A program made the position numbers and the translations under genes. The notes under the pieces are model-generated. The model was not told where the DNA came from, made no database searches, and saw only the letters and a program-made list of their open reading frames with translations. From NCBI GenBank assembly GCA_964244895.1, contig CAXTKV010000085.1:1-20395 (forward strand): a stretch of DNA of 20,395 bases, in the 5' to 3' direction. Source of the stretch: an uncultured Deinococcales bacterium. Lineage in GTDB: Bacteria; Deinococcota; Deinococci; Deinococcales; JAAFIG01. Below are positions 3,730 through 12,798 of this stretch, in pieces (the stretch's first letter is position 1; every line of letters begins with the position of its first letter).

Positions 3730-4629
3730 ATGAGAGCCAAAAAAGCCTTTCCGACCCACATCGTCGTGTTTTTATTGCCCGCCGTGCTGATTTACACGGC
3801 CTTCATGATCTATCCGTTGCTGGATTCCTTGCGGTTGTCCCTCTATAACATCGGGCTGGATTTCAAAACGCATTTCGTGGGCCTGGAAAACTACCAGAAA
3901 CTGCTGACCAACGAGCGCTTCGCGCCTCAACTCGGGAACGCGATTCGGAACAACCTGGTGTTCTTCGTGATTCACATGTGCGTGCAGAACCCGATCGGGT
4001 TGCTGCTGGCGGTCTTGTTGTCCACCCGCATTCGCGGCAGCGTCGTGTACCGCACGCTGATTTTCGTACCGACCGTTTTATCCGTGGTGCTGATCGGGTT
4101 CTCGTGGCGCATGATCCTGTCGCCGGTCTGGGGCATCGCGGACAAGGTTCCGGGTTTGAACCTGATGAACCTGGGTCTCGAGCAGAGCGCACTCATCACG
4201 GTTTCGCTGATCTCCGTCTGGCAGTACGTCGGCATCCCAATGATGCTTTTTTTAGCGACATTGATCGGCATTCCGTCTGAATTGCTCGAGGCCGCGCGGG
4301 TGGACGGCGCGAACGCCTGGACGGTCTTCTGGAAGATTCAATTCCCGCTGATCCTGCCGACCGTGGGGATCGTGGCGGTGCTGACCTTCGTGGGCAACTT
4401 CAACGCCTTCGACCTGGTGTACGCCACTCAGGGCGCGCTGGCCGGGCCGGATTTTCACACGGATTTGCTGGGCACGCTGTTCTACCGCACGTTTTTTGGA
4501 TTCCAGTTGCAACGCGGCGATCCGTACCTGGGCAGCGCCGTGGCGGGCGTGATGCTACTGATCATCCTGACGGGCGTGCTGGTCTACTTGTTCGCGTGGC
4601 AGCGCCGACTGCAAAGGATCGAACTGTGA
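3730..4629 (+). CDS. Sugar ABC transporter permease (MalF-like)
   Basis: FVGLENY motif, EAA loop ELLEAARVDGANAWTVFWKI, multiple TM segments. Confidence 0.93.
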   Translation: MRAKKAFPTHIVVFLLPAVLIYTAFMIYPLLDSLRLSLYNIGLDFKTHFVGLENYQKLLTNERFAPQLGNAIRNNLVFFVIHMCVQNPIGLLLAVLLSTRIRGSVVYRTLIFVPTVLSVVLIGFSWRMILSPVWGIADKVPGLNLMNLGLEQSALITVSLISVWQYVGIPMMLFLATLIGIPSELLEAARVDGANAWTVFWKIQFPLILPTVGIVAVLTFVGNFNAFDLVYATQGALAGPDFHTDLLGTLFYRTFFGFQLQRGDPYLGSAVAGVMLLIILTGVLVYLFAWQRRLQRIEL

Positions 4630-4632
4630 AGT

Positions 4633-4665
4633 GGTCACGGGTCGCGGGTCACGGGTCACGGGTCA
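4633..4665 (+). repeat. Heptamer tandem array (GGTCRCG) x~4.7
   Basis: GGTCACG GGTCGCG GGTCACG GGTCACG GGTCA. Confidence 0.9.
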
Positions 4666-4882
4666 AAGCGAAACCCGTCCCGGTGCGCGGTCTCGAGGTT
4701 GGTTCAGTGCGAACGTCGCGCGAACATCTGTGCCACACGCGCCGTATTTCTGTAGAAGCGAATCTTGTCTTCGCCCTCGAGCGGCGACGATCGTTTGAAA
4801 TGCCGCCTCGGGCGCGACGGATGCTCAAAAATCGAGCCCGACGTTCGCCCGATGCGCGCTCTTTCAGCCGAGAGAATGACAG

Positions 4883-4941
4883 AAGCACCGTGCTGCACAG
4901 TGTTTTCTCGAGCCTCGAGAATAGCGTGTGGGACGGTCTCC
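4883..4941. repeat. ~50-bp palindromic repeat family, degenerate copy 3
   Basis: AAGCACCGTGCTGCACA...GCGTGTGGGACGGTCTC, with an inner TTCTCGAG-c-CTCGAGAA hairpin. Confidence 0.7.
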
Positions 4942-4942
4942 T

Positions 4943-4970
4943 CGCGGCTTGCGGCTTGTGGCCCGCGGCC
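4943..4970 (+). repeat. Heptamer tandem array (YGYGGCY) x4, complementary to 4633-4665
   Basis: CGCGGCT TGCGGCT TGTGGCC CGCGGCC. Confidence 0.8.
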
Positions 4971-4984
4971 AGAAGGCTCCTCCC

Positions 4985-5860
4985 GTGAGCCTCGCCTCGA
5001 GCGTTCCCGCCACCGGAAAGCGCCCCGGCAGCCCGTTGCGCGGCCACCTGGAACACGGCGCAATCCACGCGGTCTTGATCTTCTACACCCTCATTGCGCT
5101 CTTCCCGACGCTGTTGGTGGTGATGAATTCCTTCAAGGCGCAAAAAGCCATCTTCGGATCGCCGTACAGCTTCCCGACGCCCGCGACCTTCGATCCGATC
5201 GGCTATTCGACGGTCTTCTCGAATGCGCATTTTGAACGCTACTTCCTGAACAGCCTGATCGTGACCATCGTGTCGCTGGCGGTGATCCTGACCGTCTCGA
5301 GCATGGCGGCCTTCGCGCTTTCAGAGTACGAATTTCGGGGCAATGCGCTCCTGGGCTTGTACCTGAGCATCGGCATCATGGTGCCGATCCGCTTGGGTAC
5401 GGTCAGCTTGCTGAAAATGATGGTCGGGCTGCACCTGGCCAACACGTTGACCGCACTGATTTTGATTTACGCGGCGGCTGGCATTCCGCTGGCCGTGTTC
5501 GTGCTGACGCAGTTCTTTCAGACCGTTCCCAAAGAGTTAAAAGACGCCGCCCGGATCGACGGCGCGAGCGAGTACCGCGTGTTCTTGCTGTGCCTACCGA
5601 TCGTGCGACCCGCGCTGGGCACGGTCGCTATTTTCAACATGATTCCCGTCTGGAACGACCTGTGGTTCCCGTTGATCGTCGCCAACGACGAGAGAACCAA
5701 GACGGTGATCCTGGGCGCGCAACAATTCCTGGGCCAGTTCGTCAACGACTGGAACGCGGTGCTGGCGGCCTTGTCGCTGGCGGTGCTGCCCGTGATCGTG
5801 CTGTACGTGATTTTTTCAAGGCAACTGATCCGAGGGCTGACGCAGGGCGCGGTCAAGTAA
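4985..5860 (+). CDS. Sugar ABC transporter permease (MalG-like)
   Basis: YFLNSLIVT motif, EAA loop KELKDAARIDGASEYRVF, C-terminal GLTQGAVK. Start moved to GTG 4985 because the ORF-track start (4928) lies inside a repeat. Confidence 0.92.
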   Translation: MSLASSVPATGKRPGSPLRGHLEHGAIHAVLIFYTLIALFPTLLVVMNSFKAQKAIFGSPYSFPTPATFDPIGYSTVFSNAHFERYFLNSLIVTIVSLAVILTVSSMAAFALSEYEFRGNALLGLYLSIGIMVPIRLGTVSLLKMMVGLHLANTLTALILIYAAAGIPLAVFVLTQFFQTVPKELKDAARIDGASEYRVFLLCLPIVRPALGTVAIFNMIPVWNDLWFPLIVANDERTKTVILGAQQFLGQFVNDWNAVLAALSLAVLPVIVLYVIFSRQLIRGLTQGAVK

Positions 5861-6024: not shown

Positions 6025-6393
6025 TCAGGGGCCGAAGCCGCGCGGTTGAGTCTTGCCGTGCCAGTGCAGGCAGTTCGGGCAGATCATGCCGTCCGGGTCG
6101 CGGCGCATCGCGTCGCCCAGACCGCGCAACTTGGCGCGGCGGAAAACGCCATCGAAGAAATCCCAGATGCTTTGCCACCACGCCAGGTTGCGATCCCGAC
6201 GAAGGCTCGGGTCGAAGCGGCTCTGCCACCACTCCCCGAGATCGTGCGGACCGTAGGGAAGGTCCGGGTCGAGACCCGCCAGGCCAGCGTGATCGCTCGA
6301 GGAACCCGAACCGTACGCCCGAGCAGTGATCATCGGGTACGCGCAACGCGGACAGTGCTGGAAGGCGCTCTGAGATAAACCGATCCGACCCAT
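6025..6393 (-). CDS. Small hypothetical protein with split zinc-ribbon (CPRC ... CPNC)
   Basis: Two CPxC knuckles near the termini; leaderless signature TAACGT-N5-ATG. Confidence 0.7.
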   Translation of the reverse strand: MGRIGLSQSAFQHCPRCAYPMITARAYGSGSSSDHAGLAGLDPDLPYGPHDLGEWWQSRFDPSLRRDRNLAWWQSIWDFFDGVFRRAKLRGLGDAMRRDPDGMICPNCLHWHGKTQPRGFGP

Positions 6394-6760: not shown

Positions 6761-6780
6761 GCCTGCGGTCGAGAAGACCG

Positions 6781-6898
6781 TTCTTGCTCGTGGAATAGCA
6801 CCTTCTTGCCGCCAAAGACAGCACCTTCGGGCTTGCGGCGCTGACGGGCTACTCGCGCTTCTTGCTCGTCAGACAGCACCTCTCGAGCTACTCGCGCT
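6781..6898. repeat. Mosaic of short direct repeats
   Basis: TTCTTGC...AGCACC unit at 6781-6802, 6803-6825 and 6859-6880; GCTACTCGCGCT at 6848-6859 and 6887-6898. Confidence 0.75.
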
Positions 6899-6938
6899 CC
6901 AGCACGCGAATTGAATCACGCGTTCGAGACGGTATTTT
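6898..6938. repeat. ~50-bp palindromic repeat family, truncated copy 4
   Basis: TCCAGCACGCG-aattgaatca-CGCGTTCGAGACGGTATTTT, abutting the GGDEF/EAL stop. Confidence 0.65.
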
Positions 6939-9763
6939 TACGCTTTCGGGTTGGCTTGCGGTTCGTACTGACGCAAGAACGCTTCGGCTTCCAGCGCAGG
7001 AACCGGACGGGAATACAGGAATCCCTGCGCGATATCGCACCCGATCTGACGGGCGGTATCCAGGTCAGAAAGGGTTTCCACACCCTCGATCACCACGTCC
7101 ATCTGAAGCTTGTGGGCCAGCACGGTCATGGCTTCGATCAACGGTCTGGAGCTGGGTTGGGCGTTCAAGCCGACCACGAAGGAACGGTCAATTTTCAGGC
7201 GGTTGAACGGCAACTGGTGCAGCAGCGACAGGCTCGAGTTGCCCGTCCCAAAATCGTCCATCGCCACGCTGACGCCCAACTCGCGCAAGCGCACGATCTG
7301 CGCGGCAGCTTCAACGGGATCGCGCAGCACGAAGGTTTCTGAGAGTTCCAGCTCCAACCGATCCGGTGAAAGGGTGGTTTCCAGGAGCGCGAAGCGCACA
7401 CAATCCACCAGATCCATCTGGTCGACCCGCAAAGAGGACACGTTGACGGCCACCCGCGCGCGCGGCAAACCCGCCGCGTCCCAGGCGACGATCTGATGGC
7501 TGGCCTGGCGCAGCATCCACACGTCAATCCGTCCGATCATGCCGGTCTCTCGGGCCATCGGGATGAAATCGAGCGGCGGGATCAGACCGAACTCCGGGTG
7601 TCGCCAACGCACCAGCGCCTCGAAACCCACCACCTGGCCGCTCTGGGCGTCCATCTGAGGCTGATAAAACGCCTCGAGTTCGCCGCGATCCAGGGCGCGC
7701 CGCAGGTCGGATTCGAGCTGCAAACGGCGGTGCGCAGCGGCGTTCATGTCCGCATCAAAATACGAGATACCGTTGCGCCCGGCGGCCTTGGCGTGATACA
7801 TCGCCACGTCGGCGTTGCGCTGCAGCGTGTCGGCGTCCTCACCATCCAGCGGGTACAGGCTGATGCCCAGGCTGGCCGTGACGAACAACTCCTGGCCCGC
7901 CAGGTGAAACGGTGATGCCAGCACGTCCATCAACCGGTGCGCGACCCTGGCGGCGTCGCGCGGGTCGGTCAGGTCGGGCAGTACCAGCGTGAATTCGTCC
8001 CCGCCGCGCCGCGCGAGCGTGTCCGTCAGGCGCAAGCAGTGCGCCAGGCGTTGCGCGACCTGACAGATCAGTTCGTCGCCGACGGCGTGCCCCAGGGAAT
8101 CGTTGACCTGCTTGAAGCGGTCCAGATCGAGGAACATCACCGCGACCTTGACGCCGTGCCGCCGCGCGCCCTCGAGCGCGACCTGCAAACGATCCTCGAA
8201 CAGGACACGGTTCGGCAGGCCGGTCAGCGCGTCGTGGTGCGCATCGAAGGTCATTTTTTCGGTCAGCGCCTGCAAGCGTTCCTCGTCCTGCTTGCGCTGC
8301 GTGATGTCGAGCATGATGCCGCGCGCCCACTGGGAATCACCGACCCGGCGCGGCGTGACCAGGCTCCTGATCCAGACGGCCTGTCCGGTGCGAGCGAACA
8401 TCCGGAATTCGAGCGAGTACGGGCGTCCGCTCTTGTTGCCCTCCACGAACTCCTGAGTGGTTCGGTCGCGATCGTCGGGGTGCAGGTGGTCTTCCCAGAA
8501 GTCGAAATCGTTCATCCATTCCTGGGGCGTGTACCCCAACAGAAATTCAACCTGAGGACTGACGAATGTTTGACGGTAGCCTCGTCCGCTACCGTCGTTG
8601 ACCGATTCCCAAAGCACGCCGTTGATCGAGTTGATCATGTCCTCGACCCAGATGACATCCTGGCGCACCGCCGCCTCGCGTTGGCGTTGCTCGGTGATGT
8701 TGGTCAGGATCGAAATTCCGCCGATCCGCCGACCGTCCCGGAGGCGCGGCGAGGACTGAACGCTGGCTTCGATCAGCGAACCATCGGGGCGGAGCAGGCG
8801 CGTTTCGAAGGTTTCGGACTTGCCCTCGCTGCGGCGTTCAAGTCTTCCATAGAGCGCCGTGTGCTCGGTCGGATCCACCAGATCAAAAATGACCTTACCG
8901 ACGATGTCCTTCGATGAGCGTCCGACCATCTCGCAGAAGGCAGGATTCGCGTACTCGAAACGGCCCTCGAGGTCCGTCACGGTCAAGCCCTGGCTCATGG
9001 CTTCCATGATGTGAGTCCCAAAGCTTCGGCTCTCCTCGAGCGCCGACCAGGCCACCTTGAGATCGGTCAGGTCGGTCATGGAGATGACCGTACCGCTGAC
9101 CTGCCCATCGGTCCACCTGGGTTCGTTGCGAATCAGTAAGTAAGAAACCCCGTCCTGCCCAGGCGCAGTGATCTCTTTCGATACGGCCTCTCCGCTGCGT
9201 ATCTGCTCGAGCATGGATTCAATCCCGGCGTGCAAGACGGGCGGGGAAATATCGAACAGGGTCTGTCCGACCAGCTGATCGCGGGTTCTCTTGATCATCT
9301 GAGCGTAGGCGAGATTGGCATACTCGAAGCGTCCGTCGCGATCCAGCACCGCCATGGCGTTGTTGACCCCGTCCAGGATGCTCAACGCGGCGTCCCGGCT
9401 CGCGCGCAGATCGAGATCCGTTTGTTGATCGCTCTGGCTCAGTTCGGTCTGGCCCAGTTCGGTCTGGCCCAGTTCGCGCAGCACGATCACGGCTTCGCCT
9501 TCCACGGCGCGAGCCGTGACCTGGAGCTTGCGAGCATCCAGAAGCTGAAACTCGAGCCGCGCAGATTCGAGCGCCGCAGCCTGGAGGGCTTCTTCGAGCG
9601 TTCCACCGGACATCAGGCTGGATTCGAGCCAGGCACGGGCCAGCGAATCCGCGCGCAGAAGCCGACCGTCGGGCGCGAAGATTGCGAAGCCTTCAGCGCG
9701 CGCCTCGAGCCCATCCCGAGGCTGGGCACGGGTTGTATCGGAATTGGTCGGGTGGTCGCTCAT
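6938..9763 (-). CDS. Multi-PAS diguanylate cyclase/phosphodiesterase (PAS x3-GGDEF-EAL)
   Basis: Three PAS/PAC repeats, HDALTGLPNR, RLTD I-site five residues before an intact GGDEF, FEALVRW, DDFGTG, KIDRSF, EGVET, AQGFLYSRP; no TM segment. Confidence 0.95.
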   Translation of the reverse strand: MSDHPTNSDTTRAQPRDGLEARAEGFAIFAPDGRLLRADSLARAWLESSLMSGGTLEEALQAAALESARLEFQLLDARKLQVTARAVEGEAVIVLRELGQTELGQTELSQSDQQTDLDLRASRDAALSILDGVNNAMAVLDRDGRFEYANLAYAQMIKRTRDQLVGQTLFDISPPVLHAGIESMLEQIRSGEAVSKEITAPGQDGVSYLLIRNEPRWTDGQVSGTVISMTDLTDLKVAWSALEESRSFGTHIMEAMSQGLTVTDLEGRFEYANPAFCEMVGRSSKDIVGKVIFDLVDPTEHTALYGRLERRSEGKSETFETRLLRPDGSLIEASVQSSPRLRDGRRIGGISILTNITEQRQREAAVRQDVIWVEDMINSINGVLWESVNDGSGRGYRQTFVSPQVEFLLGYTPQEWMNDFDFWEDHLHPDDRDRTTQEFVEGNKSGRPYSLEFRMFARTGQAVWIRSLVTPRRVGDSQWARGIMLDITQRKQDEERLQALTEKMTFDAHHDALTGLPNRVLFEDRLQVALEGARRHGVKVAVMFLDLDRFKQVNDSLGHAVGDELICQVAQRLAHCLRLTDTLARRGGDEFTLVLPDLTDPRDAARVAHRLMDVLASPFHLAGQELFVTASLGISLYPLDGEDADTLQRNADVAMYHAKAAGRNGISYFDADMNAAAHRRLQLESDLRRALDRGELEAFYQPQMDAQSGQVVGFEALVRWRHPEFGLIPPLDFIPMARETGMIGRIDVWMLRQASHQIVAWDAAGLPRARVAVNVSSLRVDQMDLVDCVRFALLETTLSPDRLELELSETFVLRDPVEAAAQIVRLRELGVSVAMDDFGTGNSSLSLLHQLPFNRLKIDRSFVVGLNAQPSSRPLIEAMTVLAHKLQMDVVIEGVETLSDLDTARQIGCDIAQGFLYSRPVPALEAEAFLRQYEPQANPKA
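9433..9477. repeat. In-frame 15-bp tandem repeat x3 (ELGQT ELGQT ELSQS)
   Basis: TCTGGCTCAGTTCGG TCTGGCCCAGTTCGG TCTGGCCCAGTTCGC, in the N-terminal linker of the GGDEF/EAL gene. Confidence 0.85.
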
Positions 9764-9880
9764 GGATTCCGGGGCGCAGGGTCAGGGCACAGCGACCGCG
9801 CGATTCCAGTCACTTTAGAGGCAATCCAATTTTTCCCCTGTGACGAACCATCACGCTGACGCCTGCGTTTTCGTGATCAA
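9760..9880 (-). other. Chain of three overlapping mini-ORFs linking the mscS stop to the GGDEF/EAL start
   Basis: TTG 9880..9851 (9 aa), ATG 9851..9810 (13 aa), GTG 9813..9760 (17 aa); junctions TTGA, TGATG, GTGA, ATGA. Confidence 0.35.
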
Positions 9881-10998
9881 TCCGCGGGTTCGTCCTGATT
9901 CGACGGCACGTCCGGCACGAGCTGCATCTGTGCGGGCATGTTCAGACTCATCTGCGGCATCGGGACGCGCAACCCAGCCGCGTCGAAAGCGTTCTTGACG
10001 CGGCGGCGGAACTCGCGCGCGACCGCCCATTGCTCTTTGGGTTGCACCTTGAAGGTCGTGCGGATCGTCACGACCGCCCCCGATAGCGCTTGAACACCCA
10101 TCAGATCGGGTTCCTCGAGAAACTTTTCAAACCACTCGGGATCGTTGTACAACCCGAACGCGACCTGACGGAGCAATTCCAGGGCCTGATCCAGGTTGGT
10201 TTCGTGGGCGACATCCACGTCCGCGACCGCCCGCGCCCAGTCCTTGGAAAGCACGGAAACCGTCCTGATCTCGCCGTTCGGGATGACGTGCGCCGTGCCT
10301 TCCAGATCGCGCAGCACGGTCGTGCGGAGGCCGACGGCCTCGACGCCGCCCGCCAGACCACCCGCGCCGTTGATGCGCACCACGTCGCCGACGCCGTACT
10401 GGTCTTCGAGCAGGATGAAAAAGCCCGTGATCACGTCCTTGACCAGGCTCTGCGCGCCGAAGCTGATGGCCAACCCAAAAATGGAAACGCCCGCCAACAA
10501 TGCCGTGACATCGACGCCGAGTTCGGAAAGCACCGCCAGCAGGGCAGAGACCACGATCACCACCCGCAGGGCGCTGGCCACCACGCCGCGCAGCGTTTCC
10601 AGCCGCACGTTGCGCCTCGAGAACACGCCGTCCGCCGTCAGCTTGGACGCGATCAAGCCCACCAGTTGCAGGGCCACGAACGCGCCCGCCAGCGTGGCGA
10701 CCACGCTCAGGATGCGCCCCGAAAACCAGCTCGAGAGATCCCGTCCCCAGCCGTAGAGCGGTTCGAGTTCCGTCAGGGTCAGCGTGAAAGCGACCACGGA
10801 CGCCGCGATCACCAACGCTGAAACCGACCACAGGATATTGACCACGCGCCGCGCGCCCCTGGCGTTCGCATCCTGCCGCGACCACGCGCCCAGCGCCGCC
10901 AGCCCGAGCGCGTAGGTGAGCAGCACCAGCGCCAGCCGCCCGACCAGCGCGATCACCGCCGCCGGGGTCGAGAGGGCCGCCCGGATCGTCTCGAGCAT
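9877..10998 (-). CDS. Small-conductance mechanosensitive channel family protein (YbiO/MscS-like)
   Basis: ALLAGVSIFGLAISFGAQSLVKDVITGFFILLEDQYGVGDVV, GLRTTVLRDLEG, IPNGEI, REFRRRVKNAFD. ATG 10998 (alternative TTG 11001). Confidence 0.93.
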   Translation of the reverse strand: MLETIRAALSTPAAVIALVGRLALVLLTYALGLAALGAWSRQDANARGARRVVNILWSVSALVIAASVVAFTLTLTELEPLYGWGRDLSSWFSGRILSVVATLAGAFVALQLVGLIASKLTADGVFSRRNVRLETLRGVVASALRVVIVVSALLAVLSELGVDVTALLAGVSIFGLAISFGAQSLVKDVITGFFILLEDQYGVGDVVRINGAGGLAGGVEAVGLRTTVLRDLEGTAHVIPNGEIRTVSVLSKDWARAVADVDVAHETNLDQALELLRQVAFGLYNDPEWFEKFLEEPDLMGVQALSGAVVTIRTTFKVQPKEQWAVAREFRRRVKNAFDAAGLRVPMPQMSLNMPAQMQLVPDVPSNQDEPAD

Positions 10999-11030
10999 CA
11001 AGAAATCCCGTGTCTCGAGGGGGGTTTTCG

Positions 11031-11057
11031 GAAGGGCGATCCCTGTAGTCGCCCTTC
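11031..11057. repeat. REP-like hairpin related to the GTAG REPs
   Basis: GAAGGGCGAT-ccctgta-GTCGCCCTTC. Confidence 0.65.
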
Positions 11058-11100
11058 AAATCGCGCGGGATGCGGCGGCTCGAGCCACCTCGGTATCTCG

Positions 11101-11150
11101 AGAACACCGTCCAGGACACGTTTCTTAAATCGCGTGCTGGACGGTGTTCC
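11101..11150. repeat. ~50-bp palindromic repeat family, copy 5
   Basis: AGAACACCGTCCAGGACAC-gtttcttaaatc-GCGTGCTGGACGGTGTTCC. Confidence 0.9.
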
Positions 11151-11164
11151 TGAAATCCGTGGCG

Positions 11165-12223
11165 TCATGGCTGGGCAACCTCGCCGGGTTGAGTCTCGCT
11201 CTCGAGCTTGCGCGCCAGGACGCTCAGGCGGGACGTGACGCGCTCCAGCAGGTTGGCCTCGACAGAACGCGCCGCGATCTTCAGGGCGCTCTCGACGGCC
11301 TTCGCGTCCGAGGATCCGTGCCCGATGAACACCAGTCCCTTAACGCCCAGCAAGGGTTGCGCCCCGTACTCCGCCGGGTCGAGCCGCGCCGCCACGCCGC
11401 GCAACGCGGGGCGCACCAGCGCCGCGCCCAATTTGGTCAACCACGATCCACCGCTCAGCGCCTCGCGCACCCAGCCGAAGATCAACCGGGCTTCCTGCTC
11501 GGCGGCCTTCAGCACGACGTTGCCGGTGAAGCCGTCCGTCACGACCACGTCGGTTGTGCCTTTGAAAATATCGCGCCCTTCGACGTTGCCAAAAAAGTTC
11601 AGGTCGGGCGTGGCCTTCAGCAAGTCGTACGCCTCGAGCACCAGCGCGCTGCCCTTGCCTTCCTCTTCACCGATGCTCAAGAGGCCCACGCTCGGGTTTT
11701 CGATGCCGAACATCGATTGCGCGTAGGCCGCACCCATCAGCGCGAAACCCTGCAAGAACTCCGCGCGGTTGTCCGCGTTCGCGCCCACGTCCGCCAGCGT
11801 CACGCGGCCTTTGGAATTCGGAAAGTTGGCCACGATGGCCGGGCGATCCACACCCGGAATGCGTCCCAGCCCGAACAGCGCGCTGACCAGCGTCGCGCCC
11901 GTATGCCCCTGGGCGACCACGGCGCTGGCGCGTTTCTCGCGCAGCAAACGCACGGCGACGTTGATGGACAGGTTCTTGTTCTTGCGGGCTTCGGTGGCGT
12001 GATCGACCATGCCGATCACGTCGGAGGCGTGAACCACGGTGATGGGCAGGCTGGCCCAGCCCGCGCCGCCGAATTTCTCGAGTTCGCGCTTAATATCCTC
12101 CTCGCGCCCGACCAGCACGACCGGGATGCCCTGACGCGCGGCCCGCACCGCGCCGTCCACCATCGCGGCGGGCGCGAAATCCCCGCCCATCGCGTCCAGC
12201 GCGATCGGAAGCTCGAGCGTCAC
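11165..12223 (-). CDS. plsX: Phosphate acyltransferase PlsX
   Basis: IALDAMGGDFAP, GHTGA, DVGANAD, LLSIGEEEGKG, FFGNVEGRDI, DVVVTDGFTGNVVLKAAE, GHGSS. Confidence 0.96.
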   Translation of the reverse strand: MTLELPIALDAMGGDFAPAAMVDGAVRAARQGIPVVLVGREEDIKRELEKFGGAGWASLPITVVHASDVIGMVDHATEARKNKNLSINVAVRLLREKRASAVVAQGHTGATLVSALFGLGRIPGVDRPAIVANFPNSKGRVTLADVGANADNRAEFLQGFALMGAAYAQSMFGIENPSVGLLSIGEEEGKGSALVLEAYDLLKATPDLNFFGNVEGRDIFKGTTDVVVTDGFTGNVVLKAAEQEARLIFGWVREALSGGSWLTKLGAALVRPALRGVAARLDPAEYGAQPLLGVKGLVFIGHGSSDAKAVESALKIAARSVEANLLERVTSRLSVLARKLESETQPGEVAQP

Positions 12224-12255
12224 GGCCTTCCCCGAATGATGCGATACGGACTCAT
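12220..12255 (-). other. Putative 11-aa upstream ORF (MSPYRIIRGRP) coupled to plsX
   Basis: ATG lies 10 nt downstream of the -10 TAGACT; its TGA overlaps the plsX GTG (GTGA). Confidence 0.4.
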
Positions 12256-12265
12256 GATGGCAGTC

Positions 12266-12275
12266 AGTCTAAACT
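12266..12275. promoter_or_regulatory. Putative bidirectional promoter with overlapping -10 boxes
   Basis: AGTCTAAACT gives TAAACT on + (6 nt before GTG 12282) and TAGACT on - (towards plsX), sharing the central TA. Confidence 0.6.
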
Positions 12276-12281
12276 ACGCGC

Positions 12282-12638
12282 GTGGACACCAGAAACCGTC
12301 CCGATCTTCACGGCTCGCTGCGGGGTGAACTGTACTACCTGAACCGCGCGGGTTTCACCACAAAAATTGCGCCCCTGATGCGCCAGCGCGGTGATCGCGC
12401 TCAGGTGCTGGTCTGGACGAACCTCGCGGGATTGGAACGGTTTCGCTCGAGCCTGCGCGTTGAAACCGAGGTCGTCAGGATTGCACCCGACGACTGGCGG
12501 GAACGCGCCGAATTTCTCGAGGCCATCGCCGCGCAGGGCGGGCTGGAAGTGGTTTTCGACGAGCAGCACGCGTTCCGCACCGGTCAGGCGATGATTCTCG
12601 TCGAGGCGCAGAAGACGCTGACGGCCTGTCTGACCTGA
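12282..12638 (+). CDS. Hypothetical protein (118 aa), reminiscent of small Deinococcus/Thermus conserved proteins (DUF3234-like, unverified)
   Basis: Protein-like composition (PDLHG...LYYL...LVWT...EFLEA...ACL); leaderless TAAACT-N6-GTG. Confidence 0.75.
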   Translation: MDTRNRPDLHGSLRGELYYLNRAGFTTKIAPLMRQRGDRAQVLVWTNLAGLERFRSSLRVETEVVRIAPDDWRERAEFLEAIAAQGGLEVVFDEQHAFRTGQAMILVEAQKTLTACLT

Positions 12639-12687
12639 GAACACCGTCCGGCACGCGATCAAAAAATGCGTCCTGGACGGCGTTCTC
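12637..12687. repeat. ~50-bp palindromic repeat family, copy 6
   Basis: GAGAACACCGTCCGGCACGC-gatcaaaaaat-GCGTCCTGGACGGCGTTCTC, overlapping the upstream TGA. Confidence 0.9.
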
Positions 12688-12798
12688 GTCGGGGTAGCCC
12701 GTGTGAGCACCGTGTAGGACTGGGCGCGCTCGAGCCATGAACCGATTGATTGTTCTGGGGCCCCAGGACGCGAAAAGAAGATTCCCGTAAGCTGAACC

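Follow-up and report, generated by a model that had tools for sequence, protein, structure and literature searches.

The window analysed here is a stretch of 20,395 nucleotides (nt), contig CAXTKV010000085.1 of assembly GCA_964244895.1, from an uncultured Deinococcales bacterium. On its minus strand it carries three genes, plsX, mscS and a gene for a GGDEF/EAL protein, which are connected by short open reading frames (ORFs). A sequence-only reading of the window had described this arrangement as seven consecutive start/stop overlaps running from an upstream ORF (uORF) before plsX to the GGDEF/EAL gene. All seven overlaps are found in the DNA on the minus strand from 12255 to 6938, as the ORF coordinates of the window confirm, and the gene identities are supported by Pfam. 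In fact, the chain is composed of three links of unequal strength: the uORF before plsX, a single filler (bridge) ORF between plsX and mscS, and three mini-ORFs between mscS and the GGDEF/EAL gene. Judged from the sequence, it is probable that the uORF loads ribosomes and the plsX-mscS filler is kept by selection, while the three mini-frames more likely arose by chance. The elements of the locus are listed below, from 5' to 3' on the minus strand except for the last one; aa denotes amino acids.

12266..12271, minus strand: candidate -10 box TAGACT of the plsX-mscS promoter, 10 nt 5' of the uORF ATG
12220..12255, minus strand: uORF of 11 codons, near-leaderless; its stop overlaps the plsX start (GTGA)
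11165..12223, minus strand: plsX, phosphate acyltransferase, 352 aa (PF02504, E 8e-95); ATGA overlap into the next ORF
10998..11168, minus strand: 56-codon filler (bridge) ORF, ATGA entry and TGATG exit
11095..11156, strand not assigned: palindromic REP-like repeat with inverted arms, inside the bridge
11031..11057, minus strand: second hairpin in the bridge, non-repeated, from the predicted fold
9877..10998, minus strand: mscS, mechanosensitive channel of 373 aa in a long N-terminal form (PF21088, PF00924, PF21082)
9851..9880, minus strand: mini-ORF 1, TTG start, 9 aa; overlaps the mscS stop (TTGA); Shine-Dalgarno (SD) score -0.6
9810..9854, minus strand: mini-ORF 2, from ATG 9851 (13 aa, TGATG entry) or GTG 9854 (14 aa, GTGA entry)
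9829-9834 and 9812-9817, minus strand: two weak -10-like hexamers, a candidate own promoter of the GGDEF gene
9760..9813, minus strand: mini-ORF 3, GTG start, 17 aa, GTGA entry; its stop overlaps the GGDEF start (ATGA)
6938..9763, minus strand: GGDEF/EAL protein of 941 aa with PAS domains (PF00990, PF00563)
12637..12688, strand not assigned: further copy of the palindromic repeat (repeat match), upstream of the locus

In the GGDEF/EAL translation, both the GGDEF and the EAL motif are intact. The start codon of mscS has the support of a homolog whose alignment begins at the same Met, and that of the GGDEF gene is based on our custom gene model together with weakly positive coding scores over the first 60 codons. 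Promoters of this lineage look -10-only, and a scan for sigma-70 promoters and terminators returned nothing useful. The Rfam search produced a single weak match, inside plsX (E 0.48), whose score is far under that of the family. The predicted fold of the mscS-GGDEF spacer is unremarkable (z -0.3). According to the sequence-only reading, neither mscS nor the GGDEF/EAL gene has an SD sequence or a TANNNT box at leaderless spacing. This holds for the promoter, in that no -10 box at leaderless spacing was found 5' of either gene, and for the SD of the GGDEF gene (score -4.6, equivalent to none), but the SD score of mscS is marginal (-0.02); that of plsX is weak (1.0). We also observed that mscS (9877-10998) keeps an N-terminal extension of ~95 residues, as in distant relatives, the family orthologs being short.

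Overlaps of -1 and -4 give an identical frame shift, and the spacer length sets the number of bridging ORFs modulo three: the 166-nt spacer between plsX and mscS requires one bridging ORF, and the 113-nt spacer between mscS and the GGDEF gene requires three or none. Since all -1/-4 overlaps shift the frame in the same way, the seven overlaps are not seven independent coincidences. When the spacers were dinucleotide-shuffled 5000 times with the gene ends fixed, the plsX-mscS relay was rebuilt in 188 cases (3.8%) and the mscS-GGDEF relay in 301 (6%). Genome-wide, double relays are present in 17 of 721 consecutive spacer pairs (independence would give 8.6), this locus among them, and five of 409 chains have at least six overlaps, the plsX-mscS-GGDEF chain included. 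Chains of seven to eight consecutive overlaps occur at C121:524 (+), C48:10420 (+) and C220:3382 (+), and these three outlength the present chain when it is counted without the uORF.

For a genome-wide test of single bridges, in which one ORF overlaps both the upstream stop and the downstream start, genes and starts were called with a custom-built model, and the gene set consisted of 2373 co-directional pairs of strong genes. Note that the start caller is blind to the upstream stop. A control based on 1-nt deletions is biased low, direct pairs being excluded from it, and we place weight on the phase test, the three nulls and the phase-matched control. Of 1644 spacers of 30-500 nt, 180 contain a relay, compared with 89.6 in shuffles. 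In the 1528 spacers of at least 60 nt, there are 131 single bridges, whereas three nulls that keep the ends fixed give 59.8, 72.8 and 65.4; the corresponding numbers are 24 against about 15-16 for two-ORF relays and eight against 2.8-4.6 for three-ORF relays (p about 0.05). Among 1552 co-directional spacers of 60-500 nt, doubly overlapping pairs are distributed as 100/176/75 by spacer length modulo three (p 5e-11). The frame is open from end to end in 131 of the 176 phase-matched pairs, and the matching frames in class 0 are open in 20 and 49 of 100. When there is a start on the upstream stop, 124 of 230 frames have their own stop exactly on the next start; without one, 58 of 346 do (p 8e-21). 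In this phase-matched control, 38.6 such exact endings are expected, so about 70% of the 124 are excess, and the excess persists when only the most upstream starts are used (68 of 87). Around 85 single bridges of this genome exceed chance. The excess over composition-preserving shuffles that the sequence-only reading had called for is therefore present for single bridges.

The bridges also differ from other overlaps in their signals. An SD sequence is located 5' of 35% of the 131 bridge starts, but the share is 9% among the 422 starts of other overlaps (p 1e-16), the value for direct pairs being 52%. The downstream gene is leaderless in 12 of 131 bridged pairs, compared with 432 of 1421 others (p 3e-8). 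The median coding score of bridges is -0.44 per codon, which is non-coding-like, versus +0.34 for real genes. Typically, a bridge has NTGA at both ends (114 of 131); the plsX-mscS bridge ends in TGATG.

The junction of the plsX-mscS pair is usually tight. In the loci of 17 family relatives, mscS adjoins plsX in 14, and in all 14 adjacent loci there is an in-frame mscS start between -8 and +2 from the plsX stop. Here, the spacer contains a lineage-specific hairpin repeat, its predicted fold has -94 kcal/mol (z -5.0), and another weak hairpin of this predicted fold has the mscS start codon among its paired bases. No -10 box was found in the spacer. The filler itself was described earlier as non-protein-like, and we agree: the 56-codon ORF scores -0.58 per codon, the peptide has no Pfam match, and it has matches in 0 of 40 relatives, with 25 other matches all within its own genome. 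By these sequence measures, it is not a protein gene. A close relative (~90% identical), known from contigs, retains the start codon on the plsX stop and has compensating indels just downstream; note that 11 indels and 463 substitutions of this relative lie outside the listed differences, and that its spacers are only partly readable. Taken together, the sequence comparisons make it likely that the plsX-mscS bridge is kept by selection.

To place this genome among others, 400-kb samples of comparison genomes, including four relatives of the same order, were analysed with the same code. The four relatives have 15 single bridges in 923 pairs, and size-matched samples of this genome have 24 in 409; in terms of whole counts (131/2373 versus 15/923 pairs), single bridges are ~3.5 times as frequent here. 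Frames of the phase-matched class are more often open in these relatives as well (15 of 26 versus 3 of 22 and 6 of 22). The sample of genus g2 has two single bridges in 61 pairs and is too small for ranking, and a metagenome scan with mscS yielded 80 loci, all distant. Among matchable pairs, 16 of the 28 bridged ones but only 14 of 85 others have orthologs with a direct overlap in relatives (p 1e-4), and therefore bridges mark junctions that were formerly coupled directly; four bridged pairs are bridged in relatives as well. Two outgroups, Pseudorhodobacter (0 of 202 pairs) and E. coli (0 of 156 pairs), have no single bridge, which means that the code does not create the bridge signal by itself.

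The palindromic repeat has 891 merged copies genome-wide. Its exact-arm pattern occurs at 396 sites in this genome, at one in relative G005, and at none in 39 other relatives. Bridge peptides are largely translated repeat arms, in all three frames (41/29/24). However, no fixed offset or frame between the repeat arms and the bridge ends was found genome-wide, and the overlap codons lie outside the repeat, at variable distances. The arm motif is present in 107 of 131 bridged and 987 of 1421 other spacers. Target-site or start duplication as the general origin of bridges was considered and rejected, as clear junction duplications are rare (7 of 114 bridges versus 1.3 expected). A search for a Y1 (RAYT-type) transposase, PF01797, gave no match in this 91% complete assembly. 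The hexamer CTCGAG, in addition, occurs genome-wide at 4.27 per kilobase, compared with 0.33 expected from base composition.

The link from the uORF to plsX draws on a different kind of evidence. The TAGACT box scores 5.8 under the genome's own -10 model, in which the leaderless median is 5.5. It lies 10 nt from the uORF ATG instead of the usual 6-7 nt in this genome, which would place the AUG 3-4 nt into the transcript, with the transcription start predicted near 12258-12259. All 18 family plsX loci have a TANNNT box located 6-10 nt 5' of an ATG. In nine of these, from three genera, an out-of-frame uORF stops on the plsX start, with an overlap of 4 or 10 nt in the same phase; in the other nine, plsX starts in frame from the position of the uORF ATG. 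The uORF peptides are unrelated between genera, and the uORF of the close relative is longer by an in-frame insertion of 21 nt. On a plsX tree of 29 rows (truncated L022 omitted), in which the independent units are three genera only, two changes are needed, which fits one gain at the family base and one loss. Genome-wide, ATGs that follow a strong -10 box are distributed over the three phases as 7/6/24 (p 6e-4). From this conserved geometry, the plsX uORF is probably functional.

Two observations can be added on the same region. In G005, which represents a sister genus, the plsX uORF (L056:1479 region) also forms the last part of a 30-codon bridge, which opens on the stop codon of the preceding gene. 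In the window, 12263-12282 contains back-to-back overlapping -10 boxes, a candidate bidirectional promoter: the minus-strand box is the one before the plsX uORF, and the plus-strand box lies 6 nt before the GTG of a 118-aa ORF (12282-12638) with no Pfam match.

We propose the following explanation for the first two links. The conserved leader frame would load ribosomes at the 5' end of the plsX-mscS message. Lineage-specific repeats and other DNA, we infer, were inserted at the junctions of overlapping genes; such an insertion would leave the old coupled start at the upstream stop, and the surviving inserts would be those with an open frame that ends on the next start. A ribosome on the filler would melt the hairpin and then reach or clear the downstream start, so that selection on the filler would keep mscS translationally coupled to plsX, and the sequence of the filler peptide would be irrelevant. 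Reinitiation by the same ribosome and loading of a new ribosome on the unfolded RNA both fit this scheme, and suppression of Rho polarity may contribute. A review of translational coupling presents both termination-reinitiation and RNA unfolding (PMC12548453), and a study in E. coli argues against reinitiation there, one and the same ribosome not being required for coupling (PMC7538156). The earlier idea that fillers hand ribosomes across the spacers is retained in part: the uORF and the plsX-mscS bridge have comparative support, but the link through three mini-ORFs is marginal.

Several points weigh against this explanation. About 30% of single bridges (38.6/124) are what chance would give. 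The full repeat is no commoner in bridged (33 of 131) than in other spacers (380 of 1421, p 0.76), and therefore bridging is not repeat-specific. A piece of the close relative across 9464-11114 is 7 nt shorter, which means that one further frame-shifting indel, beyond those listed, lies in either the plsX-mscS or the mscS-GGDEF spacer; the 56-codon bridge could be disrupted by it. With 2-6 testable pairs per class, the outgroup controls are of limited size, and the Sphingomonas outgroup has three single bridges in 194 pairs (of these, L247, L249 and L251, two have common peptide motifs, suggesting a repeat of that genome). Every gene and start call comes from one custom model, a few listed bridges resemble real small proteins, and the translation of bridges is deduced from sequence statistics alone. 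Depletion of the ribosome recycling factor was without effect on coupling in E. coli (PMC7538156). Finally, multi-ORF relay targets are enriched for genes that have neither SD nor -10 (7 of 32 versus 74 of 1365, p 0.002; p 0.007 even without the plsX-mscS-GGDEF locus).

The last point leads to the alternative that the whole 5.3-kilobase chain is one working relay, in which translation of the GGDEF/EAL gene depends on the three mini-ORFs from mscS and ultimately on the uORF. This is consistent with the missing SD and leaderless -10 of the GGDEF gene, with the enrichment just given and with the slight excess of two-ORF and three-ORF relays noted above. It is opposed by the properties of the third link. 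The same three-ORF path is present in 6% of shuffles. Mini-ORF 1 opens on a TTG without SD, and a TTG first link is chance-like (143 of 366 chance overlaps versus 13 of 131 single bridges). Of the multi-ORF relays, 12% have an SD before their first link, which is close to the background of 9%. In the close relative, a listed 2-nt deletion would fuse mini-ORF 2 with mini-ORF 1, and a listed 1-nt deletion moves mini-ORF 3 off the stop that overlaps the GGDEF start, so that these indels break the three-ORF path unless an unlisted one hits an 8-nt window. On the other hand, at 8 of the 107 spacer positions, a further 1-nt deletion would leave the relative with a single bridge in this spacer, and one such indel is unaccounted for. 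The two hexamers of the candidate GGDEF promoter score 3.3 (9829-9834) and 3.2 (9812-9817), at the 5th percentile of leaderless promoters, and 16 of 43 single-bridge spacers of 90-140 nt reach the same -10 scores. In the 11 longer family loci, mscS is never followed by the GGDEF gene, and in two of these mscS directly abuts a convergent permease gene like that found beyond the GGDEF gene here; because of this, the GGDEF gene is regarded as a recent addition. No clear ortholog of it was found in the family, the best matches being 38-50% identical and at other places. We therefore consider it doubtful that the three-ORF link is selected. A working relay over the entire chain appears unlikely, as does its fullest form, in which repeat-invaded operons are rescued by serial reinitiation on junk frames, and ribosomes loaded at the uORF drive plsX, mscS and a captured, SD-less GGDEF/EAL gene through four fillers. 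The suggested tie between a cyclic di-GMP enzyme and phospholipid synthesis is left without support, given the 0 of 11 family relatives in which the GGDEF gene follows mscS.

The remaining alternatives concern the single bridges themselves. The plsX-mscS bridge could be a relic or a chance product, in which the old start survives, the frame happens to be open, and mscS uses its own weak SD. The 3.8% of shuffles that bridge this spacer, the chance share among single bridges, the marginal SD of mscS and the possible unlisted indel in the close relative are all compatible with this. However, a relic start accounts for the first overlap and its SD but not for the genome-wide excess in phase, openness and exact endings, and the plsX-mscS pair shows the features of the selected class (an ATG start, no internal -10 and touching orthologs), so we regard this possibility as quite improbable. 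The fillers might instead be kept mainly because ribosomes cover the spacer RNA against Rho-dependent termination or decay. For M. tuberculosis, overlapping stop/start ORFs have been proposed to suppress Rho termination (bioRxiv 10.1101/2022.06.01.494293), and all 18 family genomes have rho. That it is missing here is probably due to an assembly gap; a real loss was rejected, as the start of contig C149:7-1167 cuts a gene that adjoins rho in three relatives. For cover, however, it would be enough that a frame reaches the next gene; of the 142 frames that do so, 124 end exactly on its start, versus 58 of 105 in the control. Ribosome cover and start delivery are compatible roles, and cover as the main reason seems rather improbable. 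It is very improbable that the bridges are overlooked genes for small proteins or that gene calling created them as an artefact. It is true that the gene calls come from the custom model and that a few listed bridges are protein-like, but bridge coding scores are negative, the peptides derive from repeat arms in all three frames, the 56-aa peptide is absent from the 40 relatives, the start caller does not see the upstream stop, and two outgroups are free of bridges. For the plsX-mscS locus, this reading is largely refuted, as far as sequence measures go. Selection on the plsX-mscS filler, with ribosome loading at the uORF, remains our preferred explanation.

Some other features of the window were recorded. 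A second single bridge, a 120-codon frame, lies at 4626-4985 (+) between two sugar ABC permease genes. At 6770-6940, 3' of the GGDEF gene, there is a second, composite repeat family with ~99 blast hits genome-wide, which terminates in a degenerate copy of the palindrome. A 122-aa ORF with two CxxC motifs and no Pfam match is located at 6025-6393 (-), flanked by the GGDEF gene and the convergent ABC permease.

In the literature, it is disputed whether overlap coupling is selected and whether the same ribosome is used (PMC12548453; PMC7538156). This genome can be seen as a natural experiment on coupling, with bridges sitting where relatives overlap directly, and the list of bridges offers junctions ready for reporter tests as well as a rule for the insertions that an operon tolerates. 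It also carries a warning for annotation: a small ORF that overlaps its neighbours at both ends may be translated and yet not be a protein gene. If the full relay were true, chance overlap paths would be a way in which new genes get wired into operons. No genome-wide test of bridging was found in the titles and abstract openings searched, with most subscription papers and all supplements outside the scope of the search. The idea itself has printed precedents in MIRU (mycobacterial interspersed repetitive units), in integron short ORFs and in delivery by uORFs.

The repeat resembles REP/REPIN elements in being short, imperfectly palindromic, lineage-specific and present in hundreds of copies; unlike RAYT-associated REP/REPIN, it is not accompanied by a Y1 transposase match in the 91% complete assembly. 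In integrons, ORF-11 and the short ORFs in attC hairpins favour translation of the next gene, and their peptide sequence matters little (PMC8876359). The bridges are similar in that a short ORF passes through a stem-loop 5' of the next gene, but here they occur genome-wide between housekeeping genes; no integron features were seen, and none were searched for. Deinococcus deserti has -10-only promoters and 83 leaders that begin with AUG or GUG and encode 4-86 aa, and the stops of its leader peptides precede or overlap the main start (PMC4007540). The plsX uORF shares with these 5'-AUG leaders the predicted -10-only promoter and the leader stop overlapping the main start. What differs from that report, whose main text does not name plsX, is that the geometry persists across three genera without peptide conservation.

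Compared with translational coupling at -4/-1 overlaps, the junction geometry is identical, the SD again lies inside the upstream gene, and uORFs would again deliver ribosomes. However, direct coupling fades at 30-40 nt (PMC12548453), whereas here a throw-away frame would carry the coupling across 60-350 nt. The arrangement would work like that of MIRU, a dispersed intergenic repeat in which an ORF through the repeat overlaps the downstream start, an arrangement proposed to render the insertion harmless (PMC12548453). In both cases, a dispersed repeat lies between co-directional genes, and an ORF through it overlaps the downstream start. In MIRU, the ORF is within the repeat unit; here, by contrast, all three frames of the repeat are read, and the overlap codons are found outside of it. 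In this genome, the frame thus appears to be filtered by host selection rather than built into the repeat element.

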